64,000 nt of DNA from assembly GCF_988242995.1 (NCBI RefSeq), contig NZ_OZ547043.1; one strand, 5' to 3'. Below, piece after piece: positions 33-46,547 of the stretch; within the stretch, counting starts at the first letter, position 1, and every line of letters starts with the position of its first letter. Below the pieces are notes generated by a model. That model was not told where the DNA came from. It worked only from the letters and a program-made list of their open reading frames with translations, and did no database searches. The position numbers and the translations under genes are program-made.

Positions 33-62
33 AGTGGTGCCCCCACAATACAAGAAATAAAA

Positions 63-5973: not shown

Positions 5974-6422
5974 TAATCAAAAGGTAACAAAAATCATTGT
6001 AAACCATGCCATCTTTTTAGAGATTACCAGCAGAAAATTCCTTGTTCGAAACTTAGCAATGCAAGCTATGGAAAAACTTACAACGGAACTACACTCCTTA
6101 AGTGAGATGGACCGAAGACATGTAATCTCTATTTTAGCCGAAATAGCTAATGGCTATGATGATTTTAGTGACATGTTGATTTAGTTAGAATTTCACCCGA
6201 ATCATAAGATTCTGATATCTTAAATAAGAAAATCCCGTTCGACGTTCTGAAAAAGAAATCACAAAATATTAGCAGATACTTATTTCGTGACTGTATATTA
6301 TCCGATGAACTTTTTTCAAAACCAGCATTTAATAATATCTTTGACGAAGATGAACGCGTCTTTTCTCAAAGTATAACGCAAGAATAATAATATAACGATC
6401 AACAATAATATTTATTATAATT

Positions 6423-6707
6423 ATGATTACTTATCACGACGCATTCGCGAAAGCGAACCATTACCTTGATGATGCAGATCTCCCTGCCGTCATCACTCTG
6501 CATGGACGTTTTAGCCAGGGCTGGTATTTCTGTTTCGAATCACAAGAATTTCTTGAATCTGGAGATGAGGCCGCGCGTTTAGCCGGTAACGCACCTTTTA
6601 TTATTGATAAAGACAGTGGTGAAATTCATTCCCTTGGAACGGCAAAGCCGCTGGAAGAATATCTACAGGTTTATGAAATAAAAAAGGCTACCTTCGGCTT
6701 GCCCTGA
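6423..6707 (+). CDS. yrhB: small heat-stable chaperone-like protein
   Basis: 94 aa ORF at the position of K-12 yrhB upstream of ggt. Confidence 0.75.
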   Translation: MITYHDAFAKANHYLDDADLPAVITLHGRFSQGWYFCFESQEFLESGDEAARLAGNAPFIIDKDSGEIHSLGTAKPLEEYLQVYEIKKATFGLP

Positions 6708-6744
6708 CAATACGGCCCTCTTCCCACGAAGAGGGCCGCTAACC

Positions 6745-8490: not shown

Positions 8491-8609
8491 CGTTATTCTC
8501 CAGAGATTAAGGGGCAACCCCAGCTAAGCCTGGTATATAACTCTGAATTAATCATCGTTTTGCCGGGAAGCGAGTAAACTTAAAGGATATCTTCAGAGGA
8601 GGATACGCG

Positions 8610-9050
8610 ATGAAACGACTTCTGATTCTTACGGCACTCCTGCCGTTTGTCGGCTTTGCACAGCCCATTAATACTCTGAACAACCCCAACCAGCCGGGAT
8701 ATCAGATCCCCAGTCAGCAGCGGATGCAAACCCAAATGCAAACGCAGCAAATCCAGCAAAAAGGGATGCTGAATCAGCAACTGAAAACGCAAACTCAGTT
8801 GCAACAGCAGCATTTAGAAAACCAGATCAACAATAATTCTCAGCGGGTGTTGCAGTCACAGCCGGGGGAGCGAAATCCCGCCCGGCAGCAAATGCTGCCC
8901 AACACCAACGGCGGGATGTTAAACAGCAACCGTAATCCGGATAGTTCGTTGAATCAGCAGCATATGCTGCCGGAGAGGAGAAACGGCGACATGCTGAATC
9001 AGCCCAGCACGCCGCAGCCTGACATTCCGTTGAAAACTATTGGGCCGTAA
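8610..9050 (+). CDS. yhhA: secreted Gln-rich low-complexity protein
   Basis: 146 aa; N-terminal signal peptide ([17 protein letters not shown]) followed by Q-rich repeats ([12 protein letters not shown]); good SD (GGAGGA) upstream. Confidence 0.8.
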
Positions 9051-9780
9051 AGTTCGGACCAATCACGTCAATCGCATCGGTGCAGATGCAATCCACGCCC
9101 CAGCGCAGCAACTCTGCCGCGCGCTGGGGTTTATTGACGGTATAAACCAGAATCCGTAATCCGGCGTCTTTCAACTGCATCACTCGCGCTTTATCAAGCA
9201 ACTTATGATTGAGATGAATAGAGACGCAGCCCAGCCGCGCGGTCAGTTCTCGCCAGTCGTCGCGCCACTCATCAAGCAATAAACCGCGCGGCAGTTCTGG
9301 TACTGCTTGTTGCGCGGCTTCTAAAGCATCAATCTCAAACGATGACAGCAGCGGCGGCGTCATTCCGGCCCACAGTTCGCGTGCCGCCAGCGCCACCATT
9401 TTGCCCGTTAATGGCCCGGTGCCAGTGGTGGGTTTGATTTCGATATTCGCCATCATCCCGTGTTCGCGACAGCGTTCCGCCACCTGCGAAAGCAACGGTA
9501 GCGGCTCACCTTTAAACGCTTTGCTGTACCAACTGCCTGCATCCACGCGCAGTAAATCCTGCCAGTTCAGATCGCCCGCGACGCCCCAGCCGTTGCTGGT
9601 GCGTTCAAGATTGTCGTCATGGAGCAGGAAGATCTCGCCATCTTTCGATAACTTCGCGTCAAATTCGATCATCTTATGACCGTATTTTGCCCCGACGTCG
9701 ATTGCTGCCAGGGTGTTCTCCGGGGCCAGCTTACCGCCGCCACGATGAGCGACGATGCGGGGATAAGGCCAGTTACTCAT
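9037..9780 (-). CDS. ugpQ: glycerophosphodiester phosphodiesterase (cytoplasmic)
   Basis: 247 aa, GDPD-family motifs ([17 protein letters not shown]); last gene of ugp operon. Confidence 0.95.
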
Positions 9781-10847
9781 ACTCGTTGTCCTGTTTCACC
9801 ATCAAAAAGATGCAGCTGATTTTCCGGCAGATGCAGCCACAGCGTGCTGCCTGCCGTCGGGCGCTCCTGATGCGCCAGTCGCACCACCAGCTTCTGTTCG
9901 CCCCAGCGTCCGTGCGCCAGGTTATCTGCGCCGAGGATCTCCAGCGTGTCCATCACCAGCGGTACGCCGCCTTCTGCCTGCGAGCTTAGCGCTATATGTT
10001 CCGGGCGAATGCCGAGAGTCATTTTACGCCCGGCATACTGACGGTAGCCACCGTTTAGCGGTAGCACGATACCGCCGTCCAGTTCAAAATGCGTGCCTTC
10101 ATTATTCACGCGGCCTGTCAGCAGATTCATCGCCGGACTGCCAATAAAACTCGCCACAAACAGGCTGGCGGGCTTTTCGTAGACTTCAACTGGCGTGCCA
10201 ATCTGTTCGGCAACGCCGCCGTTCATCACCATTACTCGCTGGGCGAGCGTCATCGCCTCAACCTGATCGTGAGTAACGTAGAGTGAAGTCGTTTTCAGGC
10301 GACGGTGCAGCTGTTGCAGTTCAAGACGCATCTGTACGCGCAACTTGGCATCGAGGTTAGAGAGCGGCTCATCAAACAGGAACACTGCCGGCTCACGCAC
10401 AATCGCACGCCCCATCGCCACACGCTGACGCTGACCGCCAGATAGCTCACGCGGGCGGCGCTTAAGCAGGCCGTCCAGCTCCAGAATGCGCGCCGCTTCT
10501 TTAACACGTTCGGCAATTTGTTGCTTGCCCATGCCGCGAATTTTCAGCCCCCACGCCATGTTCTCCTCTACGCTCATATGCGGATAGAGCGCGTAGTTCT
10601 GGAACACCATCGCAATCCCGCGATCTTTCGGCTCCATTTCGGTGACACGCTTGCGGTCGATCCAGATATCGCCCGTCGTTACCCGCTCCAGTCCGGCCAC
10701 CATTCGCAATAACGTCGATTTCCCGCAGCCAGACGGCCCGACCATCACGATAAATTCGCCATCCGCCACATCAAGGGTCAGCGGTTTAATGACCTGGGTT
10801 TTGCCATCCCAGCTTTTGGTTACTGCCTGTAATTTCAGTCCTGCCAT
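9777..10847 (-). CDS. ugpC: sn-glycerol-3-phosphate ABC transporter ATP-binding protein
   Basis: Start refined to MAGLKLQAV; Walker [13 protein letters not shown] signature LSGGQRQR; 356 aa. Confidence 0.95.
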
Positions 10848-10848
10848 C

Positions 10849-11694
10849 TTATTTCTCACTATCGACCAGGCCGCGCACAAAGGCACGCTGCATCACTAAA
10901 ACAATCACTACTGGTGGGATCAGGGTTAACAACATCGCCGCCATCACCGAGTTCCATTCCGTGGTGCCTTCGCCTGTGGCGATCATCCCTTTAATCCCTG
11001 CCACGGTGGTGCCGAGATCCACGTCGGTAATAATCAACAACGGCCACAAATACTGGTTCCAGCCGTAAATAAAGGTGATCACAAACAGCGCCGCCAGATT
11101 AGTTTTGGAGAGCGGAAAAACGATGTCGCAAAAGAAGCGCATTGGTGACGCACCGTCGATCCGCGCCGCTTCCACCAGCTCATCCGGCAGCGTCATAAAG
11201 AACTGGCGGAAAAGAAACGTGGCGGTCGCCGAGGCCATCAGCGGCAGCGTTAAACCGGCGTAGCTGTCGAGCATTTTCAGATTGGCGATCACTTCCACCG
11301 TCGGGAAAATACGCACTTCAACCGGCAACATCAGAGTGATAAAAATCATCCAGAAGAAGAGGTTACGTAGCGGAAAACGAAACCAGACAATGGCAAATGC
11401 CGAAAGCATCGAGACGGTAATTTTGCCGAGCGTAATGCTGAACGCCATCACAAAGCTGTTAAGCAACATCCGCCAGAAAGGCGCACTATTCGTGCCTACC
11501 CCGTTCACCCAGATGTTGTGGATGTTTTCCAGCAGATGTGTGCCGGGGATGAGCGTCATCGGCGCGGCGTAGACGGCCTGTTTATCCAGCGTCGCCGCGA
11601 CAAACGCCACGTACAGCGGGAAGAGGATCACCGCGATCCCGAGGATCAGCATGGTATGGCTGAATATCGTCAGCCACGGACGGTTCTCAATCAT
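10849..11694 (-). CDS. ugpE: sn-glycerol-3-phosphate ABC transporter permease
   Basis: 281 aa polytopic membrane protein, MalG-like; synteny in ugpBAECQ. Confidence 0.95.
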
Positions 11695-12578
11695 TGGTAA
11701 CGCACCTTGCTTTCAACATAGCGGAACTGCACCACCGTCAGCACGATGACGAGGAACATCAACACCACCGACTGCGCGGCAGACGAAGCCAGATCCAGTC
11801 CGGTAAAGCCTTCGCGGTAGATCTTATAAATCAGCGTCGTGGTAGCCTGAACCGGCCCGCCGGACGTAGCGGCGTCGATCACCGGGAAGGTGTCGAAGAA
11901 GGCGTACACCAGGTTCACCACCAGCAGGAAGAAACTCACCGGAGCGATAAGCGGCAGAGCAATCTTAAAGAAGCGGCGAATCGGGCCTGCACCGTCGATG
12001 GCTGCGGCTTCGATCAACGAACGGGGAATGGATTGCAGCGCGGCATAGAAGAACAGAAAGTTGTAGCTAATTTGCTTCCACACCGAGGCAAACACCACCA
12101 GAAACATCGCCTGACCGCTGTTTTGCGCGTGGTTCCAGTCGTAGCCGAACTCAGCGAGAAAATGGGTGATCAGCCCGCGACCAGGGTTAAACAGGAAGAT
12201 CCACAATACGGCGGCAACGGCGGGTGCCACGGCGTAAGGCAGCAGCATTAAGGTTTGATAGAAACGGCTGCCGCGCACGATGTACTCCACCAGCGCCGCG
12301 AAGAACAGCGATACCAGCAAACCGCTGACGGTGACAAAGGTGCTGAATTTTATCGTCGTCCAGAAGGAGTCGAGATAATAGCTGTCATGAAACAGCGTGA
12401 CGAAGTTATCCAGGCCGACAAACTGGCTGGAGAAACCAAATGGATCGACGCTTTGCAGCGAGTACCACAACGCTTCGCCCGCAGGCCAGATAAAAAAGAT
12501 AACGGTGATGATGAGCTGCGGCGCGACCAGCAAATAGGGCAGCCAGCGCGAGCGGAACACCGGACGGGATGATGACAT
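11691..12578 (-). CDS. ugpA: sn-glycerol-3-phosphate ABC transporter permease
   Basis: 295 aa polytopic membrane protein; 4-bp overlap with ugpE. Confidence 0.95.
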
Positions 12579-12589
12579 AGTTAAACTCT

Positions 12590-12740
12590 TCGTGTTGTGT
12601 TCCCCTCACCCCGGCCCTCTCCCCAGAGGGGCGAGGGAGAAAGGCGGTGCATACTTTCCCACCGAGCGAAGTTGCAAACCGACACGGCACCTGGATACCA
12701 CGCCGATCGGTCCCCTCTCCCTTTGGGAGAGGGTTAGGGT
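12590..12740. repeat. GC-rich palindromic intergenic repeat (boxC-like), two inverted copies
   Basis: cccctcaccccggccctctcccc...ggggcgaggg and its inverted partner gggagagggttagggtgaggg seen directly; a related copy occurs at about 30420-30490. Confidence 0.65.
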
Positions 12741-12753
12741 GAGGGTAAGAGAA

Positions 12754-14070
12754 TTAAGACTTCGTAGACTGCTCAAAGCGGCGCAGTAACTGATTCCCAC
12801 GCTCAACGGCGGTATCCAGCGCCTGCTGTGGCGTCTTCTTACCGGTCCACACGCTCTCCAGCTCTTCATCCACAATCACGCGGATCTGCGGCATGTTGCC
12901 CAGACGCAGCCCTTTGGTGAACGGCAACGGCGGCTTATTCAGCATCTGACGCGTCGCGGTATCCGCCCCTGGGTTTTTCTCATAAAAACCCTGCTCACGG
13001 GTCAGGTCATACGCCGCTTTGGTGATTGGCAGATAACCAGTTTTCTGATGCCACTCGGCAGCGTTTTCTGGCTTCGCGAGGAAGTCGAGGAACTTCGCCA
13101 CACCCGTATAAGTTTCTTTATCTTTACCCTGCATTACCCACAAGCTGGCTCCGCCGATAATGGCGTTTTGTGGCGCATCTTTCGCATCGGCGTCGTAAGG
13201 CATCATGCCTACGCCGTAGTTAAATTTGGCGTACTCGCGAATGTTGGCGAGAGAACCGGAAGAGGCGGTGGTCATCGCGCAATCACCGTTATAGAACTTC
13301 TCAGTGGATTCATCCTTACGCCCGACGTAGCTGAAATCGCCCTTCTTGTTCATCTCTTCGAGCATAGCGATGTGTTTCACCTGCTCCGGCTTGTTGAACT
13401 CCAGCACCGCGTCTGTGCCGTCAAAGCCGTTGTTTTTGCTGGCAAACGGCAGACCGTTCCAGGCGCTAAAGTTTTCCAGTTGGATCCAGCCCTGCCAGCC
13501 GCTGGCGTAGCCGCACTTCATGCCGGAGGCTTTCAGTTTTGCGGCATAGTCCGCCAGATCCTGCCAGGTTTTCGGCGGCTGTTCCGGGTCTAAACCGGCT
13601 TTCTTGAAGGCGTCTTTGTTGTAATAGAGAACGGGAGTCGAGCTGTTGAACGGCTGGGAGAGTAAGTGGCCGGTTTTGCTGTCGGAGTAGTAGCCTGAAA
13701 CCGTCGGCACAAACTGCGACTCATCGAACTGAATCCCCGCCTCTTTAAACACGTCATATACCGGTTTAATGGCTTTCGACGCCATCATGGTGGCGGTGCC
13801 AACTTCATAAACCTGCAAAATAGCAGGCGCGTTGCCGGTACGAAATGCGGCAATCCCCGCGCTTAAATTCTGTTCGTAGTTGCCTTTATAGGTCGGTACA
13901 ATTTTGTAATCCGGGTTTTCGGCGTTAAAACGTTGGGCCAGAGAATCCACCTCTTTACCCAGTTCCCCTTCCATAGAATGCCAGAACGGAATGGTCGTCA
14001 CTGCCTGTGCATTCCCCATTAACGCCAGTCCGAGCGCCAGTGCTGAAGCTGTATAATGTAACGGTTTCAT
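12754..14070 (-). CDS. ugpB: sn-glycerol-3-phosphate ABC transporter periplasmic binding protein
   Basis: 438 aa with signal peptide ([23 protein letters not shown]); first gene of ugp operon. Confidence 0.95.
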
Positions 14071-14250
14071 CGTTTATCTCTCTTGTTGTACCGAATGCGC
14101 GAATTCACGCGTTTTATGCTCGCGGGGTAACATGACATGCTCGAATTACAGAAAAATAACTTTTTTGTTACATTTGAAAGATAGTAAGGTGTCAGAAAGA
14201 TGACAAGGCGGTGACGGTACGTGTGAGGGAAAATGGGAGATGGGGCACGG
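14071..14250 (-). promoter_or_regulatory. ugpB promoter region (Pho-regulated in E. coli)
   Basis: AT-rich region upstream of ugpB containing CTGTAAT/TGTCAT-like pho-box half sites; assignment from established ugp regulation, individual sites not resolved. Confidence 0.4.
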
Positions 14251-14304
14251 ATAAGCGGGAAAAATAGAAGGTCTGAATCAAACTCTACAGATTGCTCATC
14301 GTTT

Positions 14305-14410
<106 letters not shown>

Positions 14411-14467
14411 TTACATTTGTCACCTGTCTCAAAGGAGTCTTTTGACTCCTTATCAATCAACGTGTTA

Positions 14468-15181
14468 TTACCCGCCTAAATACGCACTTCTCACCGCTTC
14501 ATTCGCCAGCAGCGTATCGCCGGTATCGGAGAGCACAACATGGCCGTTTTCCAGCACGTAGCCGCGATCCGCCAGCTTTAGCGCCTGGTTGGCGTTCTGC
14601 TCGACGAGGAAGATGGTCATCCCCTGCTCGCGCAGCTGCTCGATGGTGTCGAAAATCTGCTGGATGATAATCGGCGCAAGACCGAGCGATGGCTCATCAA
14701 GCAACAATAAACGCGGGTTGCTCATCAGCGCGCGACCAATCGCCAGCATCTGCTGCTCACCGCCGGACATGGTGCCCGCCCGCTGAACACGGCGTTCATG
14801 GAGACGCGGAAACAGTTCATACACCCACTTTATGCGTTCCTGGAACTGGTCACGTTCAGCAAAAAAACCGCCCATCGCCAGGTTCTCTTCCACCGTCATC
14901 CGCGAGAAAACACGACGCCCTTCCGGGACAATCGCCACCGCTTCGCGCATGATTTTCGCCGTCTGCCAGTCGGTAATGTCTTTATCATCAAACACAATTC
15001 GCCCGCTGGTGGCGCGTGGGTCGCCGCATAACGTGCCGAGCAAGGTGGTTTTCCCCGCGCCGTTCGCGCCAATGAGGGTGACAATCTCGCCCTGATTGAT
15101 ATGCAGGCTCACCTCATGCAGCGCCTGGATTTTGCCGTAGTGGGCGCAGACTTTGTCAAAGGACAACATGACTTTTTCCAT
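14468..15181 (-). CDS. livF: branched-chain amino acid ABC transporter ATP-binding protein
   Basis: Start refined to MEKVMLSFDKV; Walker A GANGAGKTT; 237 aa. Confidence 0.95.
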   Translation of the reverse strand: MEKVMLSFDKVCAHYGKIQALHEVSLHINQGEIVTLIGANGAGKTTLLGTLCGDPRATSGRIVFDDKDITDWQTAKIMREAVAIVPEGRRVFSRMTVEENLAMGGFFAERDQFQERIKWVYELFPRLHERRVQRAGTMSGGEQQMLAIGRALMSNPRLLLLDEPSLGLAPIIIQQIFDTIEQLREQGMTIFLVEQNANQALKLADRGYVLENGHVVLSDTGDTLLANEAVRSAYLGG

Positions 15182-15182
15182 C

Positions 15183-15950
15183 TTATGCCTCACCTAAATA
15201 GGCACGGATCACGTCCGGGTTATTACGGATCTGCTCCGGCGTACCGTTTGCCAGCGGCGTCCCCTGGTTGACCACGTAAATTCTGTCTGAAATCCCCATC
15301 ACCAGCTTCATATCGTGTTCAATCAACAAGATAGTGGTGTTGTGATGGTTACGCAGTTCGGCAATCAGCTCATCCAGCTCTTTCGTCTCTTTCGGGTTAA
15401 GACCTGCTGCCGGTTCGTCGAGCATTAAAATCTCCGGCTGCGTCACCATGCAGCGGGCAATCTCCAGACGACGCTGGTCACCATAGGCCAGGTTACTCGC
15501 CTGACGGTTGGCATGTTCCAGCAAACCAATGCGCTCAAGCCAGGTAGCGGCGCGGTCGAGCGCTTCGCTCTGGGCGCGACGGAAAGAAGGCGTTTTCAAC
15601 AGGCCGGAGAACAGCCCGGTTTTCAGTTGCTGATGCTGTGCCACCAGCAGGTTTTCAATTACCGTCATTTCACGGAACAGACGCACATGCTGGAAGGTAC
15701 GCACCACGCCCATGCGGGCAATTTGCTGCCCCGGTAAACCTTCCAGATGCTGATCGCGCAGTAAAATAGTGCCGCCGGTGGGTTTATAGAATCCAGTCAG
15801 GCAGTTGAAGACCGTGGTTTTTCCGGCACCGTTAGGTCCGATTAACGAGACGATCTCCTGCGGGTACAGTTCAAGATTGACGTTGTTCACCGCCAGCAGG
15901 CCGCCGAAGCGCATCATCAGGCCGTTAACGGATAATAATGGCTGACTCAT
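15183..15950 (-). CDS. livG: branched-chain amino acid ABC transporter ATP-binding protein
   Basis: 255 aa; Walker [10 protein letters not shown]. Confidence 0.95.
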
Positions 15951-17224
15951 GCCTGCTCTCCTTTCGCTGCGCCGTTTTTCAGCTTCAGTTGCGGGCGCGT
16001 CATGGGCAGCAAGCCCTGCGGACGCCAGATCATCATCAGCACCATCAAACCACCGAGCATTAACATGCTGTATTCGTTAAAGTCGCGCATCAATTCGCGC
16101 GACACCACCAGCAGAACTGCCGCCAGAATCACTGCAAATTGCGAACCCATACCGCCGAGCACCACTATTGCCAGCACAAAGGCTGATTCGGCAAAGGTGA
16201 AGGATTCCGGGCTGACAAAGCCCTGACGCGCAGCAAACAGCGTTCCGGCAAAACCGGCAAACGCGGCGCTGATGGTAAAGGCGGTCAGCTTGATACGACG
16301 CGGGCTTAAGCCCAGCGAACGGCAGGCAATTTCGTCTTCACGCAACGCTTCCCACGCACGACCCAACGGCATCCGCAGCAGGCGGTTAATGACAAACAGG
16401 CTTAACACCACCAGCAGCAACGCCACCAGGTAGAGGAAAATGACGCGATCGGAGGGATCGTATTTCAGGCCAAAGAAATTACTGAACGTGTCCCAGCCGC
16501 CTTCACGGGCGGTACGGCTGAACTCGAGTCCGAAGAGCGTCGGTTTCGGGATCTGACTGATTCCGTTCGGGCCGCCGGTGATTTCAGTGTTATTGAGCAG
16601 CAATATGCGCACAATTTCGCCGAAACCGAGGGTAACGATCGCCAGATAGTCGCCACGTAAACGCAACACCGGGAAGCCGAGCAGGAAGCCCGCCGCCGCT
16701 GCCATTAACCCGGCAATGGGCAGACAGGTCCAGAACCCCAGACCGTAATAGTGATTGAGCAGCGCAAAGGTGTAAGCGCCGATGGCGTAAAAGCCGCCGT
16801 ATCCCAGCACCAGCAGACCAGAAAGCCCTACCACCACGTTCAGCCCGAGACCAAGAATAATGTAGATCATGGTCAGAGTGGCGATATCCACCGTCCCGCG
16901 TGAGACCATAAACGGCCACGCCACCGCAAGCACCAGCAGCGCCACGAGAAACAGCTTTTGCTTCACCGTGGAGCCATCAATGGCGGGCAGAATAAACTTC
17001 GGTCCGGAAATGCTTTTCAACCCTTTCTGGAAAGCCGGTCGCAAAAGCTGGAAGAAAAAGACCACCGCCGTGCCGATAAACACCCACTGCCAACGGACAT
17101 CCGAAGCGCTATCGACCACCAGTTTGGTGCCATCCAGCTCCAGTTGCACGCCCATAAAGACGCCAGCGAGGACAAAGAACATCGCGGCAGAAAGCAGCGC
17201 CATTGCAATATGCATCGGTTTCAT
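15947..17224 (-). CDS. livM: branched-chain amino acid ABC transporter permease
   Basis: 425 aa polytopic membrane protein; 4-bp overlaps with livG and livH. Confidence 0.95.
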
Positions 17225-20111: not shown

Positions 20112-20152
20112 TCGTAAAGTTTGATTTCAAAAGTGATGACCAACGAGAAATT

Positions 20153-20252
<100 letters not shown>

Positions 20253-20310
20253 TGAAGCAACGTACTCGATATTAGCAATTTGGCGGCAACCCAAAGTTGC
20301 CGATTAATGA

Positions 20311-27510: not shown

Positions 27511-28137
27511 ATGCTTTGGTCGTTTATCGCTGTCTGTCTTTCCGCATGGCTATCTGTGGATGCATCGTATCGTGGGCCAACCTGGCAACGCTGGGTGTTT
27601 AAACCGTTAACCCTTCTTCTCCTGCTGTTACTGGCCTGGCAAGCGCCGATGTTCGACGCCATTAGCTATCTGGTGCTGGCGGGGCTGTGCGCCTCACTGC
27701 TGGGCGATGCGCTAACCCTGTTGCCACGTCAACGTCTGATGTACGCCATCGGCGCGTTTTTCCTCTCGCACCTGCTGTACACCATCTATTTCGCCAGTCA
27801 GATGACGCTCTCTTTCTTCTGGCCTCTGCCACTGGTGTTGCTGGTTCTGGGCGCGCTGTTACTGGCGATTATCTGGACGCGGCTGGAAGAGTATCGTTGG
27901 CCTATCTGCACGTTTATCGGCATGACGCTGGTGATGGTGTGGCTGGCAGGTGAACTGTGCTTCTTCCGTCCGACCGCTCCGGCGCTCTCTGCGTTTGTTG
28001 GCGCTTCGTTGCTGTTTATCAGTAACTTTGTCTGGCTGGGGAGCCACTATCGCCGACGCTTCCGTGCGGATAACGCGATTGCTGCGGCCTGCTACTTTGC
28101 CGGTCACTTCCTGATCGTCCGCTCGCTGTATCTCTGA
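27511..28137 (+). CDS. yhhN: YhhN-family integral membrane protein
   Basis: 208 aa polytopic membrane protein; K-12 synteny. Confidence 0.88.
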
Positions 28138-28142
28138 TAAAA

Positions 28143-28177
28143 CTTGACTCTGGAGTCGACTCCAGAGTGTATCCTTC
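28143..28177 (+). promoter_or_regulatory. zntA promoter with ZntR (MerR-type) operator
   Basis: TTGACT -35, 20-bp spacer containing perfect palindrome actctggagtcgactccagagt, then TATCCT -10; classic MerR-family long-spacer promoter. Confidence 0.8.
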
Positions 28178-28210
28178 GGTTAATGAGAAAAAACTTAACC
28201 GGAGGATGCC

Positions 28211-30409
28211 ATGTCGACTCCTGACAATCACGGCAAGAAAGCCCCTCAATTTGCTGCGTTCAAACCGCTAACCACGGTACAGAACGCCAACGACTGTTGC
28301 TGCGACGGCGCATGTTCCAGCACGCCAACGCTCTCTGAAAACGTCTCCGGCACCCGCTATAGCTGGAAAGTCAGCGGCATGGACTGCGCCGCCTGTGCGC
28401 GCAAGGTAGAAAATGCCGTGCGCCAGCTTGCAGGCGTGAATCAGGTGCAGGTGTTGTTCGCCACCGAAAAACTGGTGGTCGATGCCGACAATGACATCCG
28501 TGCCCAGGTTGAATCTGCGGTGCAAAAAGCGGGCTATTCCCTGCGCGATGAACAGGCCGCCGACGAACCGCAAACATCACGCCTGAAAGAGAATTTGCCG
28601 CTGATTACGCTAATCGTGATGATGGCAATCAGCTGGGGTCTGGAGCAGTTTAATCATCCGTTCGGGCAACTGGCGTTTATCGCGACCACGCTGGTTGGGC
28701 TGTACCCGATTGCTCGTCAGGCATTACGGCTGATCAAATCCGGCAGCTACTTCGCCATTGAAACGTTAATGAGCGTAGCCGCTATTGGTGCGCTGTTTAT
28801 TGGCGCAACGGCTGAAGCTGCGATGGTGTTGCTACTGTTTTTGATTGGTGAACGACTGGAAGGCTGGGCCGCCAGCCGCGCGCGTCAGGGCGTTAGCGCG
28901 TTAATGGCGCTGAAACCAGAAACCGCCACGCGCCTGCGTAACGGTGAGCGGGAAGAGGTGGCGATTAACAGCCTGCGCCCTGGCGATGTGATTGAAGTCG
29001 CCGCAGGTGGACGTTTGCCTGCCGACGGTAAACTGCTCTCACCGTTTGCCAGTTTTGATGAAAGCGCCCTGACCGGCGAATCCATTCCGGTGGAGCGCGC
29101 AACGGGCGATAAAGTCCCTGCTGGTGCCACCAGCGTAGACCGTCTGGTAACGCTGGAAGTGCTGTCAGAACCGGGTGCCAGCGCCATTGACCGGATTCTG
29201 AAACTGATCGAAGAAGCCGAAGAGCGTCGCGCACCCATTGAGCGGTTTATCGACCGTTTCAGCCGTATCTATACGCCCGCGATTATGGCCGTCGCTCTGC
29301 TGGTGACGCTGGTGCCACCGCTGCTGTTTGCCGCCAGCTGGCAGGAGTGGATTTATAAAGGCCTGACGCTGCTGCTGATTGGCTGCCCGTGCGCGTTAGT
29401 TATCTCCACGCCCGCGGCGATTACCTCCGGGCTGGCAGCAGCAGCGCGTCGTGGGGCGTTAATTAAAGGCGGAGCGGCGCTGGAACAACTGGGTCGTGTT
29501 ACCCAGGTGGCGTTTGATAAAACCGGTACGCTGACCGTCGGTAAACCGCGCGTTACCGCGATTCATCCGGCAACGGGTATTAGTGAATCTGAACTGCTGA
29601 CACTGGCAGCGGCGGTCGAGCAAGGCGCGACGCATCCACTGGCGCAAGCCATCGTACGCGAAGCACAGGTTGCTGAACTCGCTATTCCCACCGCCGAATC
29701 ACAGCGGGCGCTGGTCGGGTCTGGCATTGAAGCGCAGGTTAACGGTGAGCGCGTATTGATTTGCGCTGCAGGGAAACATCCCGCTGATGCATTTGCTGGT
29801 TTGATTAATGAACTGGAAAGCGCCGGGCAAACAGTAGTGCTGGTAGTACGTAACGATGACGTGCTGGGTATCATTGCATTGCAGGATACTCTGCGTGCCG
29901 ATGCTGCAACTGCCATCAGTGAACTGAACGCGCTGGGAGTTAAAGGAGTGATCCTCACCGGCGATAATCCACGCGCAGCGGCGGCAATCGCCGGGGAACT
30001 GGGGCTGGAGTTTAAAGCGGGCCTGTTGCCGGAAGATAAAGTCAAAGCAGTGACCGAGCTGAATCAACATGCGCCGCTGGCGATGGTCGGTGACGGTATT
30101 AACGACGCGCCAGCGATGAAAGCCGCCGCCATCGGGATTGCAATGGGCAGTGGCACAGACGTGGCGCTGGAAACCGCCGATGCAGCATTAACCCATAACC
30201 ACCTGCGCGGCCTGGTGCAAATGATTGAACTGGCACGCGCCACTCACGCCAATATCCGCCAGAACATCACTATTGCGCTGGGGCTGAAGGGCGTTTTCCT
30301 CGTCACGACGCTGTTAGGGATGACCGGACTGTGGCTGGCAGTGCTGGCAGATACCGGTGCGACGGTGCTGGTGACGGCGAATGCGTTAAGGCTGTTGCGC
30401 AGGAAATAA
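28211..30409 (+). CDS. zntA: Zn/Cd/Pb-exporting P1B-type ATPase
   Basis: 732 aa; N-terminal metal-binding GMDCAACARK, CPC motif (IGCPCALVIS), phosphorylation motif DKTGTLT, hinge GDGINDAPA. Confidence 0.97.
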   Translation: MSTPDNHGKKAPQFAAFKPLTTVQNANDCCCDGACSSTPTLSENVSGTRYSWKVSGMDCAACARKVENAVRQLAGVNQVQVLFATEKLVVDADNDIRAQVESAVQKAGYSLRDEQAADEPQTSRLKENLPLITLIVMMAISWGLEQFNHPFGQLAFIATTLVGLYPIARQALRLIKSGSYFAIETLMSVAAIGALFIGATAEAAMVLLLFLIGERLEGWAASRARQGVSALMALKPETATRLRNGEREEVAINSLRPGDVIEVAAGGRLPADGKLLSPFASFDESALTGESIPVERATGDKVPAGATSVDRLVTLEVLSEPGASAIDRILKLIEEAEERRAPIERFIDRFSRIYTPAIMAVALLVTLVPPLLFAASWQEWIYKGLTLLLIGCPCALVISTPAAITSGLAAAARRGALIKGGAALEQLGRVTQVAFDKTGTLTVGKPRVTAIHPATGISESELLTLAAAVEQGATHPLAQAIVREAQVAELAIPTAESQRALVGSGIEAQVNGERVLICAAGKHPADAFAGLINELESAGQTVVLVVRNDDVLGIIALQDTLRADAATAISELNALGVKGVILTGDNPRAAAAIAGELGLEFKAGLLPEDKVKAVTELNQHAPLAMVGDGINDAPAMKAAAIGIAMGSGTDVALETADAALTHNHLRGLVQMIELARATHANIRQNITIALGLKGVFLVTTLLGMTGLWLAVLADTGATVLVTANALRLLRRK

Positions 30410-35426: not shown

Positions 35427-37001
35427 ATGTTCTCTACACTCCGCCGCACTCTATTTGCGCTGCTGGCTTGTGCGTCTTTTATCGTCCATGCCGCTGCACC
35501 AGATGAAATCACCACCGCCTGGCCGGTGAATGTCGGGCCACTAAACCCGCACCTTTACACGCCTAACCAGATGTTCGCCCAGAGCATGGTTTATGAACCA
35601 TTGGTGAAATATCAGGCAGACGGTTCGGTGATCCCGTGGCTGGCAAAAAGCTGGACTCATTCAGAAGATGGTAAAACCTGGACCTTCACCCTGCGTGATG
35701 ACGTGAAATTCTCCAACGGCGAACCGTTTGATGCAGAGGCGGCGGCAGAAAACTTCCGCGCAGTGCTCGATAACCGTCAACGTCACGCCTGGCTGGAGCT
35801 GGCAAACCAGATTGTTGATGTCAAAGCACTCAGTAAAACAGAGCTGCAAATCACCCTGAAAAGCGCCTACTATCCTTTCCTGCAAGAACTGGCCCTGCCG
35901 CGCCCTTTCCGTTTTATCGCCCCCTCGCAGTTTAAAAACCATGAAACCATGAACGGGATTAAAGCGCCAATTGGCACCGGGCCGTGGATTTTGCAGGAAT
36001 CGAAACTGAATCAGTACGATGTCTTCGTCCGTAACGAAAACTACTGGGGCGAAAAGCCGGCGATTAAAAAGATCACCTTTAACGTGATCCCGGACCCGAC
36101 TACCCGCGCGGTGGCGTTTGAAACTGGCGATATCGACCTGCTGTACGGAAACGAAGGGTTATTACCGCTCGATACCTTCGCCCGCTTTAGCCAGAACCCG
36201 GCTTACCACACCCAACTGTCACAGCCGATCGAAACCGTGATGCTGGCGCTCAATACCGCCAAAGCCCCCACCAACGAGCTGGCCGTACGTGAAGCTCTTA
36301 ATTACGCGGTAAACAAAAAATCGCTGATTGATAACGCGTTGTATGGCACCCAGCAGGTCGCCGACACCCTGTTTGCTCCTTCTGTGCCCTACGCCAACCT
36401 CGGCCTGAAACCGCGCCAGTACGATCCGCAGAAAGCGAAAGCGTTGCTGGAAAAAGCCGGTTGGACGCTTCCTGCGGGCAAAGACATCCGCGAGAAAAAT
36501 GGTCAGCCGCTGCGCATTGAACTGTCGTTCATCGGCACCGATGCGTTAAGCAAATCGATGGCGGAAATCATTCAGGCTGATATGCGCCAGATTGGCGCAG
36601 ATGTCTCACTGGTTGGCGAAGAAGAGAGCAGTATCTATGCTCGTCAGCGCGACGGTCGTTTTGGCATGATTTTCCATCGCACCTGGGGCGCGCCATACGA
36701 TCCACACGCCTTCCTGAGTTCAATGCGCGTACCGTCGCACGCTGATTTCCAGGCACAGCAAGGATTAGCCGACAAGCCGCTGATTGATAAAGAGATCGGC
36801 GAAGTGCTGGCAACCCATGACGAAACGCAACGTCAGGCGCTGTATCGCGACATTCTGACCCGTCTGCATGACGAGGCGGTTTATCTGCCTATCAGTTACA
36901 TCTCGATGATGGTGGTATCAAAACCGGAGCTGGGTAACATCCCCTACGCGCCGATCGCCACCGAAATTCCGTTCGAACAGATTAAACCGGTGAAACCTTA
37001 A
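35427..37001 (+). CDS. nikA: nickel ABC transporter periplasmic binding protein
   Basis: 524 aa with signal peptide; matches remembered NikA. Confidence 0.96.
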
Positions 37002-37941
37002 TGTTGCGTTACGTATTACGCCGCTTTCTGCTGCTGATCCCGATGGTGCTCGCCGCCTCGGTGATCATTTTTCTGATGCTGCGCCTCGGCACCGGCGACC
37101 CGGCGCTCGATTATCTGCGTCTGTCTAACCTGCCGCCGACGCCGGAGATGCTGGCCTCTACACGCACCATGCTGGGGCTGGATCAGCCGCTGTATGTCCA
37201 GTACGGCACCTGGTTGTGGAAGGCGCTGCATCTTGACTTTGGTATCTCATTCGCCAGCCAACGCCCGGTGCTGGACGATATGCTGAACTTCCTGCCCGCC
37301 ACGCTGGAACTTGCAGGTGCCGCGCTGGTATTAATTCTGCTCACTTCCGTACCGCTCGGTATCTGGGCGGCGCGCCATCGCGATCGTCTGCCGGATTTCG
37401 CCGTACGTTTCATCGCGTTTCTCGGCGTGTCGATGCCCAACTTCTGGCTGGCGTTTTTGCTGGTGATGGCGTTTTCGGTATATCTGCAATGGCTACCCGC
37501 GATGGGCTACGGCGGCTGGCAGCACATCATTTTGCCTGCGGTTTCCATTGCCTTTATGTCGCTGGCGATTAATGCACGGCTACTGCGCGCCAGCATGCTG
37601 GACGTCGCCGGTCAGCGTCACGTCACCTGGGCGCGGCTACGCGGCCTGAATGACAAACAGACCGAGCGTCGTCATATTCTGCGCAATGCCTCGCTGCCGA
37701 TGATCACCGCCGTGGGGATGCACATTGGCGAACTGATTGGCGGGACGATGATTATCGAAAACATCTTTGCCTGGCCGGGCGTCGGGCGCTATGCGGTGTC
37801 GGCGATTTTTAACCGTGACTATCCGGTGATCCAGTGCTTTACGCTGATGATGGTGGTGGTTTTTGTGGTCTGTAATTTGATTGTTGATTTGCTCAACGCC
37901 GCGCTGGACCCGCGCATTCGTCGTCATGAAGGAGCCCACGC

Positions 37942-37945
<4 letters not shown>
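37001..37945 (+). CDS. nikB: nickel ABC transporter permease
   Basis: 314 aa; DppB-like permease. Confidence 0.96.
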
Positions 37946-40749
<2,804 letters not shown>

Positions 40750-40947: not shown

Positions 40948-41694
40948 ATGAAATCATTAAGTAAGTCGTCACAAATACCGCTCTATCAACAAGTGGTGGA
41001 GTGGATAAGAGAAAGTATTTATACCGGGGATTTGGTGGAAGACGATCGCATTCCTTCGGAATACCAGATTATGGATATGCTGGAAGTGAGTCGGGGAACC
41101 GTTAAAAAAGCAGTCGCCCAACTGGTAAAAGAAGGCGTGTTGATTCAGGTCCAGGGGAAGGGAACATTTGTCAAAAAAGAGAACGTGGCATATCCGTTAG
41201 GTGAAGGATTATTGTCATTCGCGGAATCGCTGGAAAGCCAGAAAATACACTTTACCACTGAAGTTATTACGTCACGGATTGAACCGGCTAATCGTTATGT
41301 GGCAGAGAAATTAAGAATAACGCCCGGTCAGGATATTCTTTACCTTGAGCGTTTACGTTCAATTGGTGATGAAAAAGCGATGCTGATAGAGAACCGTATC
41401 AATATTGAGCTATGCCCCGGCATCGTGGAAATCGATTTTAATCAACACAATTTATTTCCAACAATAGAAAGTTTGTCGCAAAGAAAAATTCGTTACTCGG
41501 AAAGTCGCTATGCCGCGCGATTAATTGGTAATGAACGCGGTCATTTTTTAGATATCAGTGAAGATGCACCCGTTTTGCATCTGGAGCAGTTAGTCTTTTT
41601 CTCCCGAGAGTTACCCGTTGAGTTTGGCAACGTCTGGTTAAAAGGAAATAAATATTATCTGGGTACCGTGCTGCAACGGCGGGAATTGAGTTAA
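40948..41694 (+). CDS. GntR/HutC-family transcriptional regulator (HTH + UTRA effector domain)
   Basis: ATG at 40948 with upstream AGGTG (track start 40939 is GTG); N-terminal GntR HTH (IPSEYQIMDMLEVSRGTVKKAVAQLVKEGVL...GKGTFV); not part of K-12 at this position. Confidence 0.8.
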   Translation: MKSLSKSSQIPLYQQVVEWIRESIYTGDLVEDDRIPSEYQIMDMLEVSRGTVKKAVAQLVKEGVLIQVQGKGTFVKKENVAYPLGEGLLSFAESLESQKIHFTTEVITSRIEPANRYVAEKLRITPGQDILYLERLRSIGDEKAMLIENRINIELCPGIVEIDFNQHNLFPTIESLSQRKIRYSESRYAARLIGNERGHFLDISEDAPVLHLEQLVFFSRELPVEFGNVWLKGNKYYLGTVLQRRELS

Positions 41695-41718
41695 ATACAC
41701 TTTTTTATGAGGAATAAA

Positions 41719-42192
41719 ATGCAAGGCATACAGTTTCAGGAAAATTATATTCAACGACTTCCGGCAGGGTTAAGCGTTGAACAGATCATCCGTCAGTTAG
41801 CGCAACCGTTGGTTGCTGCTGAGCTGGTGGTCCCTGATTTTGCCGATCACGTACTGAAACGTGAGGCGACGTACCCAACAGGGCTGCCTACCGAACCGCC
41901 GTGCGTCGCTATTCCGCACACGGACCATAAACATGTCAGGCACAATGCAATTGCCGTCGGCATCCTGCCGGAACCGGTAGAGTTTGCCGATATGGGCGGC
42001 GATCCTGACCCCGTACCTGTCAGGGTGATTTTTTTGCTCGCCTTAAGCGAAAGTAATAAACAATTAAATGCCCTGGGCTGGATTATGGAGATGATTCAGG
42101 ATACGCCCTTTATGCGCGCCCTGCTTACGATGGAAACAACAGAAATACACACAGTAATCTTAAACAAAATGAAAGAACGAGGTGAAATATGA
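41719..42192 (+). CDS. PTS EIIA component, galactitol (GAT) family
   Basis: GatA-like motifs (YPTGLPTEP ... VAIPHTDH); start taken at ATG after GAGGA (track start 41707). Confidence 0.75.
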   Translation: MQGIQFQENYIQRLPAGLSVEQIIRQLAQPLVAAELVVPDFADHVLKREATYPTGLPTEPPCVAIPHTDHKHVRHNAIAVGILPEPVEFADMGGDPDPVPVRVIFLLALSESNKQLNALGWIMEMIQDTPFMRALLTMETTEIHTVILNKMKERGEI

Positions 42193-42470
42193 GTCAAACC
42201 ATTTTATTTGTCTGCGCCACGGGTATTGCCACATCCACGGCGGTAACAGAAAAAGTCATGGAATATTGTAAAGAGCACGGTCTTAACGTCAATTATTCCC
42301 AAACCAACGTTGCCTCTTTACCTGGAAATACTGACGGCGTAGCACTGGTAGTCTCAACGACTAAAGTGCCTTATGAACTCGACGTCCCGGTGGTTAACGG
42401 CTTGCCGATTATTACCGGTATTGGCGAAGAGAAAGTACTGGCGCAAATTGTTTCGATCCTTAAAAAGTAA
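42189..42470 (+). CDS. PTS EIIB component, galactitol (GAT) family
   Basis: 93 aa; phosphocysteine motif near the N-terminus (ILFVCATGIATST) like GatB; 4-bp overlap with EIIA. Confidence 0.78.
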   Translation: MSQTILFVCATGIATSTAVTEKVMEYCKEHGLNVNYSQTNVASLPGNTDGVALVVSTTKVPYELDVPVVNGLPIITGIGEEKVLAQIVSILKK

Positions 42471-42546
42471 TTAATAATAATTAATTTCAACCCACTCCAT
42501 CAGGCGCTAACGCGAGGTGCGCTCTCGCCTGAAAAAGAGGTTTATT

Positions 42547-43905
42547 ATGAACGATATCGCGCATACCCTCTATAATATTGTGCAATATATATTGGGATTT
42601 GGTCCCACGGTAATGTTGCCGTTGGTGTTATTTATTCTTGCTCTCTTTTTTAAAGTAAAACCCGCTAAAGCCTTACGTTCGTCATTAACGGTCGGTATTG
42701 GTTTTGTCGGTATTTATGCCATTTTCGATATTCTTACCAGCAATGTCGGGCCAGCGGCCCAGGCGATGGTTGAACGCACCGGAATTAATTTACCGGTGGT
42801 GGATTTAGGCTGGCCGCCGCTTTCCGCTATTACATGGGGTTCGCCAATTGCCCCGTTTGTTATTCCCCTGACTATTCTGATTAACGTGGCGATGCTGGCG
42901 TTAAATAAAACCCGCACCGTTGACGTAGATATGTGGAACTACTGGCATTTTGCCCTTGCCGGTACGCTGGTTTATTACAGCACCGGCAGCCTGTTCTTTG
43001 GTTTGCTGGCAGCGGCGATTGCTGCGGTGGTAGTACTTAAACTCGCCGACTGGTCTGCGCCACTGGTACAAAAATACTTTGGCCTGGAAGGGATCTCTTT
43101 GCCGACGCTCTCTTCGGTGGTGTTCTTTCCGGTCGGTCTGTTGGTCGACAAAATCATCGACCATATCCCCGGCCTCAATCGTATTCATATCGATCCGGAA
43201 ACCGTACAGAAAAAGTTTGGCATATTCGGCGAACCGATGATGGTTGGTACTATTCTGGGCATTCTGCTCGGCGTAATTGCCGGATACGATTTCAAAAAAG
43301 TCTTGCTGCTTGGCATCAGCATTGGCGGTGTGATGTTCATCCTGCCACGCATGGTTCGCATTCTGATGGAAGGTTTATTACCGCTGTCTGAAGCCATTAA
43401 AAAGTATCTCAATGCCAAATACCCTGACCGTGACGATCTCTATATCGGCCTGGATATCGCCGTTGCCGTAGGTAACCCAGCGATTATCTCCACCGCCCTG
43501 CTGCTGACGCCAATCTCGGTCTTTATCGCGTTTGTCCTTCCGGGTAATGAAGTCCTGCCGCTTGGCGACCTTGCCAACCTGGCGGTAATGGCGTCGATGA
43601 TTGCTTTAGCCAGCCGTGGCAACATTTTCCGCACCGTTCTGGCGGCGATTCCGGTGATTATTGCCGATCTGTGGATTGCGACTAAAATCGCGCCGTTTAT
43701 TACCGGAATGGCGAAAGACGTTAATTTCAAATTTGCCGAAGGCTCCAGCGGCCAGGTCTCCAGTTTCCTTGATGGCGGTAACCCGTTCCGCTTCTGGCTG
43801 CTGGAAATCTTCAACGGCAATCTCATCGCCATTGGTCTGGTGCCGGTTATTGCCCTGGTACTGTATGGTATTTTCCGAATGACGCGGAGCACGGTTTATG
43901 CCTGA
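42547..43905 (+). CDS. PTS EIIC permease, galactitol (GAT) family
   Basis: About 452 aa polytopic membrane protein; ATG at 42547 preceded by AAGAGG (track start 42517 is GTG). Confidence 0.75.
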   Translation: MNDIAHTLYNIVQYILGFGPTVMLPLVLFILALFFKVKPAKALRSSLTVGIGFVGIYAIFDILTSNVGPAAQAMVERTGINLPVVDLGWPPLSAITWGSPIAPFVIPLTILINVAMLALNKTRTVDVDMWNYWHFALAGTLVYYSTGSLFFGLLAAAIAAVVVLKLADWSAPLVQKYFGLEGISLPTLSSVVFFPVGLLVDKIIDHIPGLNRIHIDPETVQKKFGIFGEPMMVGTILGILLGVIAGYDFKKVLLLGISIGGVMFILPRMVRILMEGLLPLSEAIKKYLNAKYPDRDDLYIGLDIAVAVGNPAIISTALLLTPISVFIAFVLPGNEVLPLGDLANLAVMASMIALASRGNIFRTVLAAIPVIIADLWIATKIAPFITGMAKDVNFKFAEGSSGQVSSFLDGGNPFRFWLLEIFNGNLIAIGLVPVIALVLYGIFRMTRSTVYA

Positions 43906-45406
43906 TAACAGCGCAGCTATCGTTATCGATATTGGCACCACCAATTGCAAAGTCACCTGCTTTTCCTGCCTGGACGCAACGACGTTGGGCGCGCATAAAT
44001 TCGTGACGGCAAAACAGATCTCCCCACAGGGCAATGTCGATTTCGATATCGACGCCCTCTGGCAGGAGGTCCGCCAGGCGATAGCGCAACTGAACGCCGC
44101 TTCGCCGCTGCCAGTCAGGCGGATAAGCATTGCCAGTTTTGGCGAGTCAGGCGTGTTCCTTGACGAGCATGGCGAGATCCTGACGCCAATGCTGGCATGG
44201 TATGACCGTCGCGGTGAAGAGTATCTGGCTACACTTAGCGAGGCAGACAGTGCGGCACTTTATGACATTTGCGGGTTACCGCTGCACAGCAATTACTCTG
44301 CCTTCAAAATGCGTTGGTTGCTGGAACATTACCCACTGCGTAATCGCCGCGGCCTGCGTTGGCTACATGCGCCGGAAGTACTGCTCTGGCGGCTGACCGG
44401 CGAACAGCGCACGGATATCACCTTAGCCAGCCGCACGCTGTGTCTGGACGTGCGCAAAGGCGCATGGTCAGTGAAAGCGGCGGCGTTGTTACACGTTCCC
44501 TGTTCAGCATTTGCGCCATTGGTGCAGCCAGGCGAACACGCCGGATGGGTCAGCGAGTCGCTCTGCAAAACGCTTGGGTTCTCGCAACCGGTCAGCGTGA
44601 CGCTGGCCGGACATGACCATATGGTGGGTGCGCGAGCGTTGCAGATGATGCCGGGCGATATCCTTAACTCGACGGGGACCACAGAAGGTATTCTGCAACT
44701 GGATACACAACCGACGCTGGATGAACAGGCCAAACGTGACAAGCTGGCAAACGGCTGTTATTCGCTTGCAAACCAGTTCACCCTGTTTGCGTCGCTGCCC
44801 GTGGGCGGTTTCGCTCTGGAGTGGCTGCGTAACACGTTCCGGCTAACCGATGAGGAGATCGCCGCATCACTTACTCGCGGACATGCGGATTACCTGGCGG
44901 GGAACTGGTCGCTCGATGACATTCCCCTCTTTATTCCACATCTTCGCGGTTCGGGTTCGCCCTATAAAAATCGCCATACTCGTGGATTATTTTATGGGCT
45001 TGGCGATACGTTAAATATCGACATGTTAATTGCCAGCGTCTCACTGGGATTAACCATGGAATTTGCCAACTGCTTCGCCTGTTTTAATGTGCCTGGCACC
45101 AGCGCGTTAAAAGTGATAGGTCCGGCAACCCAAAATCCCCTTTGGCTGCAATTAAAAGCGGATATTTTACAGCGTCCGGTTGAAGCAATTGCATTTAACG
45201 AGGCGGTTTCTGTCGGAGCATTATTAACTGCCGCACCGGATATTCCACCGCCGCAAGTTACCATAGCCCAACGTTTGTTACCGAATCGGGCGAGATACCA
45301 TCAATTACAGCGTTATCAGCACAAATGGAAAAGCTGGTATCAGTTGAAATTACAGCAAGAAGGCGTGATGCCATTACACCATCGGGAGGAGCACTATGTT
45401 GAGTAA
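43898..45406 (+). CDS. FGGY-family carbohydrate kinase
   Basis: 502 aa; N-terminal actin-fold phosphate-1 motif (AIVIDIGTTNCKV) and FGGY-type glycine-rich segments; 8-bp overlap with EIIC gene. Confidence 0.7.
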   Translation: MPDNSAAIVIDIGTTNCKVTCFSCLDATTLGAHKFVTAKQISPQGNVDFDIDALWQEVRQAIAQLNAASPLPVRRISIASFGESGVFLDEHGEILTPMLAWYDRRGEEYLATLSEADSAALYDICGLPLHSNYSAFKMRWLLEHYPLRNRRGLRWLHAPEVLLWRLTGEQRTDITLASRTLCLDVRKGAWSVKAAALLHVPCSAFAPLVQPGEHAGWVSESLCKTLGFSQPVSVTLAGHDHMVGARALQMMPGDILNSTGTTEGILQLDTQPTLDEQAKRDKLANGCYSLANQFTLFASLPVGGFALEWLRNTFRLTDEEIAASLTRGHADYLAGNWSLDDIPLFIPHLRGSGSPYKNRHTRGLFYGLGDTLNIDMLIASVSLGLTMEFANCFACFNVPGTSALKVIGPATQNPLWLQLKADILQRPVEAIAFNEAVSVGALLTAAPDIPPPQVTIAQRLLPNRARYHQLQRYQHKWKSWYQLKLQQEGVMPLHHREEHYVE

Positions 45407-45665
45407 AACCGTGGAGGTCAGAAACAGTACTGGCCTGCATGCACGTCCGGCGGCGTGTCTGGTGAAAGCCGCCAAAAAGTTTAGCTGTAAAGTGACGCTG
45501 CATTATGAGGGTAATGATATTAATGCCACCAGCATGATGAATATTATGCGCGCCGGAATAAAAGGCGGCAAAACGGTGGAAATACGCTGCGAAGGCGATG
45601 ATGAAAATGAGGCAATACAAACTCTCACTGCCTTATTTCGTGACCGCTTCGGTGAAGCTGAATAA
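45396..45665 (+). CDS. HPr-family phosphocarrier protein (operon-specific paralog)
   Basis: 89 aa; active-site His context GLHARPAA identical in pattern to HPr His15; strong SD GGGAGGAG. Confidence 0.8.
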   Translation: MLSKTVEVRNSTGLHARPAACLVKAAKKFSCKVTLHYEGNDINATSMMNIMRAGIKGGKTVEIRCEGDDENEAIQTLTALFRDRFGEAE

Positions 45666-45695
45666 TTAACTGATATTAAAAGATGAGGTTTTCAA

Positions 45696-46547
45696 ATGCC
45701 ATTAGTTAATGGACGGATACTGCTCGACCGCATTCAGGAAAAACGGGTATTAGCGGGCGCGTTTAATACCACCAATCTGGAGACGACGATTTCAATTTTA
45801 AACGCCATTGAGCGTTCAGGATTACCCAACTTCATTCAGATTGCGCCCACCAATGCACAACTCTCGGGATACGATTACATTTATGAAATCGTGAAACGTC
45901 ACGCCGATAAAATGGATGTTCCGGTCAGTCTTCATCTGGATCACGGGAAAACTCAGGAGGATGTTAAACAGGCGGTGCGCGCGGGCTTTACCTCGGTCAT
46001 GATTGACGGTGCCGCATTATCTTTTGAAGAGAATATCGCTTTCACCCAGGAAGCTGTCGATTTCTGTAAATCCTATGGCGTACCGGTTGAAGCGGAGCTG
46101 GGGGCGATTCTCGGCAAAGAAGATGATCACGTCAGCGAAGCCGATTGCAAAACGGAACCGGAAAAGGTGAAGACCTTTGTCGAGCGCACCGGTTGCGACA
46201 TGCTGGCAGTTTCTATTGGCAACGTTCATGGCCTGGACGATATACCGCGTATCGATATCCCCCTGCTGAAGCGCATTGCCGAAGTCTGCCCGGTGCCGCT
46301 GGTTATTCACGGCGGCTCCGGTATCGCCCCGGAAATATTACGCAGCTTTGTTAATTATCGCGTCGCTAAAGTAAATATCGCCAGCGATCTGCGCAAAGCG
46401 TTTATCACCGCCGTCGGCAAAGCGTATGTGAATAATCACAACGAGGCGAATCTGGCACGAGTGATGGCATCAGCAAAAAACGCCGTCGAGGAAGATGTGT
46501 ATAGCAAAATCCTGATGATGAATGAGGGGCATCGGTTGGTTAAGTAA
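45696..46547 (+). CDS. class II ketose-bisphosphate aldolase (GatY/KbaY/FbaA family)
   Basis: 283 aa; metal-binding His motifs (HLDHG, VIHGGSG) typical of class II tagatose/fructose-bisphosphate aldolases. Confidence 0.8.
   Translation: MPLVNGRILLDRIQEKRVLAGAFNTTNLETTISILNAIERSGLPNFIQIAPTNAQLSGYDYIYEIVKRHADKMDVPVSLHLDHGKTQEDVKQAVRAGFTSVMIDGAALSFEENIAFTQEAVDFCKSYGVPVEAELGAILGKEDDHVSEADCKTEPEKVKTFVERTGCDMLAVSIGNVHGLDDIPRIDIPLLKRIAEVCPVPLVIHGGSGIAPEILRSFVNYRVAKVNIASDLRKAFITAVGKAYVNNHNEANLARVMASAKNAVEEDVYSKILMMNEGHRLVK

Follow-up and report, generated by a model that had tools for sequence, protein, structure and literature searches.

The zntA promoter of E. coli K-12, PzntA, and its regulator ZntR are a textbook case of activation by DNA distortion, and the promoter is a standard part of zinc, cadmium and lead biosensors. 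Its operator has been printed as a 22-bp palindrome "within a 20 bp promoter spacer" (PMC1526738). The -35 hexamer is TTGACT, and a spacer of 19 bp is given as the rule in the MerR family "except ZntR (20 bp)" (PMC3431237). A 20-bp spacer is found in PMC7911910 as well, whereas 19 bp is stated in PMC9189660. DNase I protection by ZntR is cited from Brocklehurst 1999 and Outten 1999 in PMC3431237. In run-off assays zntA was strongly activated by Zn-ZntR at femtomolar free zinc (PMC2611976), and in vivo ZntR has been described as a mild repressor which becomes an approximately 10-fold activator with rising zinc (PMC9189660). The distortion mechanism and the zinc-dependent activation are summarised in PMC9909328 and PMC2611976; according to the former, an excess of 2–3 bp in the spacer amounts to 6.8–10.2 Å and a misalignment of 72–108 degrees, and distortion activates the promoter.

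Several other promoters of the MerR family are built in a related way. PmerT, which is controlled by MerR in Tn501 and Tn21, has the same -35 hexamer TTGACT (PMC3431237), a dyad which overlaps this hexamer and fills an over-long spacer, and a regulator which turns from a repressor into an activator by distorting the DNA (PMC7911910, PMC9909328). It is unlike PzntA in its 19-bp spacer, in the different sequence of its operator (7-4-7) and in the metal, Hg(II), and its regulator gene is adjacent and divergent while that of PzntA is distant. PcopA of E. coli with CueR and PpbrA of Cupriavidus metallidurans with PbrR also carry the dyad in the spacer (PMC3431237, PMC7911910), but with 19-bp spacers and other half-sites, and they respond to Cu(I)/Ag(I)/Au(I) and Pb(II), respectively. 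MerR promoters of the Firmicute type (PMC1526738) share the 20-bp spacer class with PzntA but drive a regulator gene together with mercury-type transport genes instead of zntA.

The window, i.e. the whole stretch of 64,000 nucleotides which was analysed, can be assigned from its sequence to the E. coli chromosome, and a 1.2-kb query around the site matches 5,425 of 5,426 complete E. coli genomes, where the site falls into the yhhN-zntA interval. The following features were located at and around the promoter.

27511–28137, plus strand: yhhN (Pfam YhhN, 158.7 bits), upstream of the promoter in the same orientation
28144–28149, plus strand: -35 hexamer TTGACT, five of six matches to TTGACA (direct reading and script)
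28147–28168, no strand: ZntR operator, perfect 22-bp palindrome ACTCTGGAGTCGACTCCAGAGT (script and chance statistics)
28150–28169, plus strand: spacer CTGGAGTCGACTCCAGAGTG, 20 bp (counted by script)
28170–28175, plus strand: -10 hexamer TATCCT, four of six matches to TATAAT (direct reading and script)
28182–28210, plus strand: putative 5' UTR, its start placed by the spacing to the -10 hexamer
28201–28206, plus strand: Shine-Dalgarno sequence GGAGGA (sequence reading) before the zntA ATG at 28211
28211–30409, plus strand: zntA, Zn(II)/Cd(II)/Pb(II)-exporting P-type ATPase of 732 amino acids (NCBIfam NF033775)

Six bases (28138–28143) lie between the stop codon of yhhN and the -35 hexamer, the last three bases of which (ACT) are also the first three of the dyad. 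The palindrome ACTCTGGAGTCGACTCCAGAGT has arms of 11 bp with the centre between 28157 and 28158, and its layout is ACTCTGGAGT-CG-ACTCCAGAGT. A single spacer base, G28169, separates its end from the -10 hexamer, which retains the A at position 2 and the T at position 6 of the consensus. The site shows the traits of MerR-family promoters: sigma-70-type hexamers 20 bp apart (19–20 bp in this class as compared to the usual 17 ± 1), a dyad operator which occupies the spacer and overlaps the -35 hexamer by 3 nt, and a metal efflux gene, zntA, downstream. The reading frame of the latter matches NF033775, named "Zn(II)/Cd(II)/Pb(II) translocating P-type ATPase ZntA", from end to end with 1452 bits at a cut-off of 1240. 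The first-pass annotation had described TTGACT and TATCCT as separated by 20 bp containing a perfect 22-bp dyad, and had given 28143–28177 as the span of the site. Direct reading and a recount by script agree with its hexamers, spacer length and dyad. The spacer does not enclose the dyad, which is longer than 20 bp and reaches into the -35 hexamer, and the span, though it points to the right site, is too long by one base at its left end and by two at its right end.

A generic promoter scan did not call the zntA promoter site because only spacers of 16–18 bp are allowed in it, which makes this result uninformative, not contrary. An Rfam scan of the 64-kb window yielded no match at the promoter. 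Since about 7 nt usually separate the -10 hexamer from the start of transcription, the zntA start is predicted at about A28182 or A28183. Folding of the zntA 5' UTR gave no special structure (z = +0.19). In the diverged, Erwinia/Pantoea-like zntA loci L101, L055, L114, L100 and L088 the leader is longer and carries a GC-rich hairpin, e.g. CGGCGGGTACTGGTGCCCGCCG, between the -10 hexamer and the Shine-Dalgarno sequence, which has no counterpart in the E. coli leader of about 29 nt.

Comparison with the published zntA promoter, which had been proposed as a check of the annotation, returned the same palindrome, the same -35 hexamer and the same 20-bp spacer, and the bases from 28080 to 28260, comprising promoter, 5' UTR and zntA start, equal those of K-12 MG1655 at 181 of 181 positions. 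The -10 hexamer is also that of K-12, the gene order yhhN-zntA-tusA is common to K-12 and the window, and the operator string is the consensus printed in PMC1526738. The site is thus the known ZntR-controlled zntA promoter of E. coli, and no novel reading survives there. The only difference from K-12 is the strain background: the surrounding 5 kb are diverged by 2.34%, and 2.96% of the bases differ within zntA as against 0 of 73 in the yhhN-zntA intergenic region. As to the length of the spacer, the direct count, the three papers which give 20 bp and the conservation of TTGACT and TAnnnT across species support 20 bp over 19 bp; the shorter spacer would need a shifted hexamer, and the conserved positions would then be lost.

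A search of the 64-kb window with the ZntR protein by tblastn gave noise only. The zntR gene was found in 5,425 of 5,426 complete E. coli genomes, its distance to zntA in K-12 is about 167 kb, and the ZntR protein contains the MerR Pfam domains. As zntR lies outside the window, far from zntA in K-12, and is nearly universal in the species, the promoter appears to be regulated in trans.

With a probability of about 97% the site is PzntA, a sigma-70 promoter of zntA with a built-in ZntR operator, activated by metal-bound ZntR. The contribution of the present analysis to this reading consists of the anatomy of the site, its identity with K-12, its conservation, the downstream gene and the occurrence of zntR in the species, while ZntR binding, DNA distortion and metal dependence are taken from the literature. 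In the proposed mechanism the 20-bp spacing would place the hexamers at a distance and in a helical phase unsuited to RNA polymerase, the -10 hexamer being about 10 Å too distant and rotated by about 100 degrees relative to the -35 hexamer (PMC9909328), so that basal transcription would be weak. A ZntR dimer, encoded elsewhere on the chromosome, would bind the 10-2-10 dyad across the -35 overlap and the spacer, and would hold the promoter low as long as metal is absent. When loaded with Zn(II), Cd(II) or Pb(II), ZntR would kink and underwind the centre of the operator, and this distortion would realign the hexamers and raise transcription of the efflux ATPase gene. The annotation had named a MerR-type promoter upstream of zntA, which is borne out by the NF033775 match, the K-12 identity and the literature, and metal-responsive activation by DNA distortion, which has literature support (PMC9909328, PMC2611976). 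A promoter call made from the sequence only has thus proved accurate, which carries little weight as a discovery.

Of 5,415 E. coli genomes, 5,399 share the 41-bp core of the promoter (28140–28180) without any change and the other 16 have a single mismatch in it, while over the surrounding 1.2 kb most E. coli genomes differ from the window by 1–5%. One of these 16 is strain S42 (L128), in which a G to A exchange at dyad position 6 (28152 of the window) yields ACTCTAGAGT-CG-ACTCCAGAGT and breaks the perfect symmetry. The same dyad position is altered on both arms in locus L086 of the survey across species.

For this survey one genome per species was scanned with ACTCTNGAGTNNACTCNAGAGT, which gave at least 120 loci. 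Among the matches listed, 104 of 120 had a ZntA homologue just downstream and reading away from the dyad, with identities to ZntA of 39–97%. The statistics on register and conservation are based on 102 usable species-level zntA loci among the matches listed. Conservation of the half-sites follows by construction from the search and was not counted as evidence. The TTG before the dyad, which was not demanded by the search pattern, occurs in all 102 of these listed loci, the linker base is G in 99, and the -10 hexamer reads TAnnnT in 99 with a final T in all 102 and free middle positions. The spacing of the hexamers never shifts in the 102 loci among the matches listed. Expressed as information per column for the same listed matches, TTG reaches 2.0 bits and the -10 hexamer 1.25, as compared to 0.23–0.29 in the flanks. 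Positions 6 and 17 of the dyad are G and C in 101 of the loci among the matches listed and jointly A and T in L086. The central positions 11 and 12 vary (0.83 and 0.69 bits in the 102 loci among the matches listed), the dinucleotide being CG in 56 loci, CC in 9, TG in 9, TA in 8, GG in 6, TC in 6 and others in the remainder of these matches. With a centre which varies freely across species the operator behaves as 10-2-10, and this fits an operator centre which is distorted and not read base by base.

The alternative that the dyad and the hexamers coincide by chance, or that the palindrome resembles a restriction site without regulatory role, has in its favour GTCGAC at the centre of the dyad and nothing else, and it is the least credible of the explanations considered. 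The analytical estimate and a set of 200 dinucleotide-preserving shuffles both put the expected number of perfect palindromes with arms of 11 bp or longer at 0.015 per 64 kb, and the operator pattern, with up to 3 mismatches allowed, has a single match in the window and none in 100 shuffles. At 21 loose sites in the window promoter-like hexamers stand 19 or 20 bp apart; an 11-bp arm is found at the zntA site only, one of the other 20 has a 6-bp arm, and the rest have no arm of 4 bp or more. Conservation of the site is near-absolute in E. coli and extends across Enterobacterales, and the central GTCGAC is the least conserved part, with positions 11 and 12 varying. Chance is already refuted by these statistics and by the conservation. 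There is also very little room, slightly more than for chance, for a site bound mainly by another regulator, such as the MerR paralogues CueR or SoxR, or for a site which serves repression only. In PMC9189660 ZntR was reported to repress at low zinc by a factor of at most about 2, and to act purely as a repressor once the site had been moved downstream of a promoter, but the same paper describes the approximately 10-fold zinc-dependent activation at the native promoter, and the long spacer, which a pure repressor would not need, is kept in all 102 loci among the matches listed. CueR, MerR and PbrR have distinct operators and 19-bp spacers (PMC1526738, PMC3431237), whereas the window carries the very sequence on which ZntR footprints were obtained, as cited in PMC3431237.

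The possibility that the palindrome acts as an RNA hairpin, as an intrinsic terminator of yhhN on the plus strand or of antisense transcripts on the minus strand, is somewhat less remote than these but still very improbable. Plus-strand RNA of the region folds into a 9-bp stem with -17.9 kcal/mol (z = -2.63), on the minus strand a consensus scan reports a terminator-like site with CAAGTTTTAT after the stem, and yhhN, for which there is no other obvious terminator, ends 6 bases before the -35 hexamer. On the plus strand, in contrast, the stem is followed by GTGTATCCTTCGG and not by a T-run. Five T in 8 bases occur on this strand in 0 of 103 related loci among the matches listed, and on the minus strand in just 2 of 103 of these matches. 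The dyad precedes zntA also in 6 loci among the matches listed which have no upstream yhhN homologue, it precedes merR-type operons in other phyla as well, and a hairpin would leave the fixed register of TTG and TAnnnT unexplained. A Rho-independent terminator was hence rejected, as the hairpin is present but a conserved T-run is absent on both strands. The only other perfect 22-bp palindrome of the window, AACGCCCGCATATGCGGGCGTT at 62050–62071, is followed by TTTGCTTTTT. Located immediately behind uspA, it is an intrinsic terminator of the usual kind which, unlike the dyad before zntA, does have a run after the stem, TTTTGCTTTTT. PzntA under control of ZntR therefore remains the preferred reading of the site at 28144–28175.

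The strain which carries this promoter has a background of its own, and the zntA promoter is that of K-12 despite its diverged flanks. The genome NZ_OW967178.1 matches the window to 100% over 1.2 kb around the zntA promoter, but it is collinear at zero offset for 14468–40749 only, with 98.0% identity, and the flanking annotation was derived from genomes with better coverage. Among the 5,426 complete E. coli genomes the best match is 98.4% for 1–16000 and 98.8% for 39001–64000; as none is higher on these flanks, the source lineage is not closely represented among them. An insertion of 707 bp at 52049–52755, which is missing from the nearest genome, encodes a Y1 transposase of 152 amino acids (Pfam Y1_Tnp, 127 bits) and contains an Rfam STnc490 match at 52623–52746 on the minus strand. 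It is an IS200-type element which interrupts the 3' part of yhiJ (DUF4049). Between nikR and yhhJ (about 40948–46547) a GntR-family regulator, PTS components IIA, IIB and IIC, an FGGY kinase, an HPr-like protein and a class II aldolase are encoded; in NZ_OW967178.1 this position is occupied by an RHS element with orphan toxin and immunity fragments. A second metal-responsive system, nikABCDE-nikR for nickel import with the NikR repressor, is located at 35427–40748, about 7 kb downstream of zntA, in the ordinary E. coli gene order. The small RNA RyhB (Rfam RF00057, 83.1 bits) was detected at 3364–3428 on the minus strand between yhhX and yhhY, its usual position. At about 4304–5973 an Hcp-family protein of 392 amino acids, annotated as tssD or "Hcp1 family type VI secretion system effector", precedes yrhA; being far longer than the plain tube protein of this family, it has a C-terminal extension. 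A stretch of about 109 bp at 20148–20256 is an inverted copy, 88% identical, of the livF-ugpB intergenic stretch in the near-identical genome L126, which corresponds to about 14300–14410 of the window. The median number of matches of the left 16 kb of the window is 24 per E. coli genome, and a dispersed intergenic repeat (REP/BIME-like) is therefore probably present there.

Outside the zntA loci, ZntR-type half-sites at 20-bp-class spacing were found before merR-led operons, among them operons in MAGs of Acidobacteria and Omnitrophota. The coordinates of the modules in the respective loci are as follows.

L003 101–122, L030 11437–11458 and L054 1134–1155: ZntR-type module in Acidobacteria/Bryobacterales MAGs
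L048 2612–2633 and L061 1152–1173: ZntR-type module in Omnitrophota MAGs
L056 1002–1023: ZntR-type module in a gammaproteobacterium MAG
L089 6432–6453: ZntR-type module in a further MAG

In all seven a merR-family gene, which in L048 had been missed by the automatic ORF call, is immediately preceded by TTGACT, the half-sites known from zntA, a single linker base and TAnnnT. Six of the seven encoded regulators are 32–42% identical to ZntR by BLASTP, and all four which were scanned contain MerR Pfam domains. The merR genes are followed by genes for small proteins with a CPNH motif and membrane proteins with a CC motif, one of which matches Pfam MerC. These loci look like autoregulated mercury-type operons which use the ZntR operator class.

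Three points of this analysis are mildly new: the 20-bp register is supported across species, the central dinucleotide is free, and the module also occurs before merR-led operons in distant phyla. It is conceivable, though we consider it rather doubtful, that the module of TTGACT, ACTCTGGAGT-NN-ACTCCAGAGT, a linker base and TAnnnT with its 20-bp spacer is an old operator class shared across phyla and not specific to zntA of Enterobacterales. If this were true, the specificity of DNA recognition would have been conserved across regulators which sense different metals, and cross-talk would be possible upon transfer of such operons.
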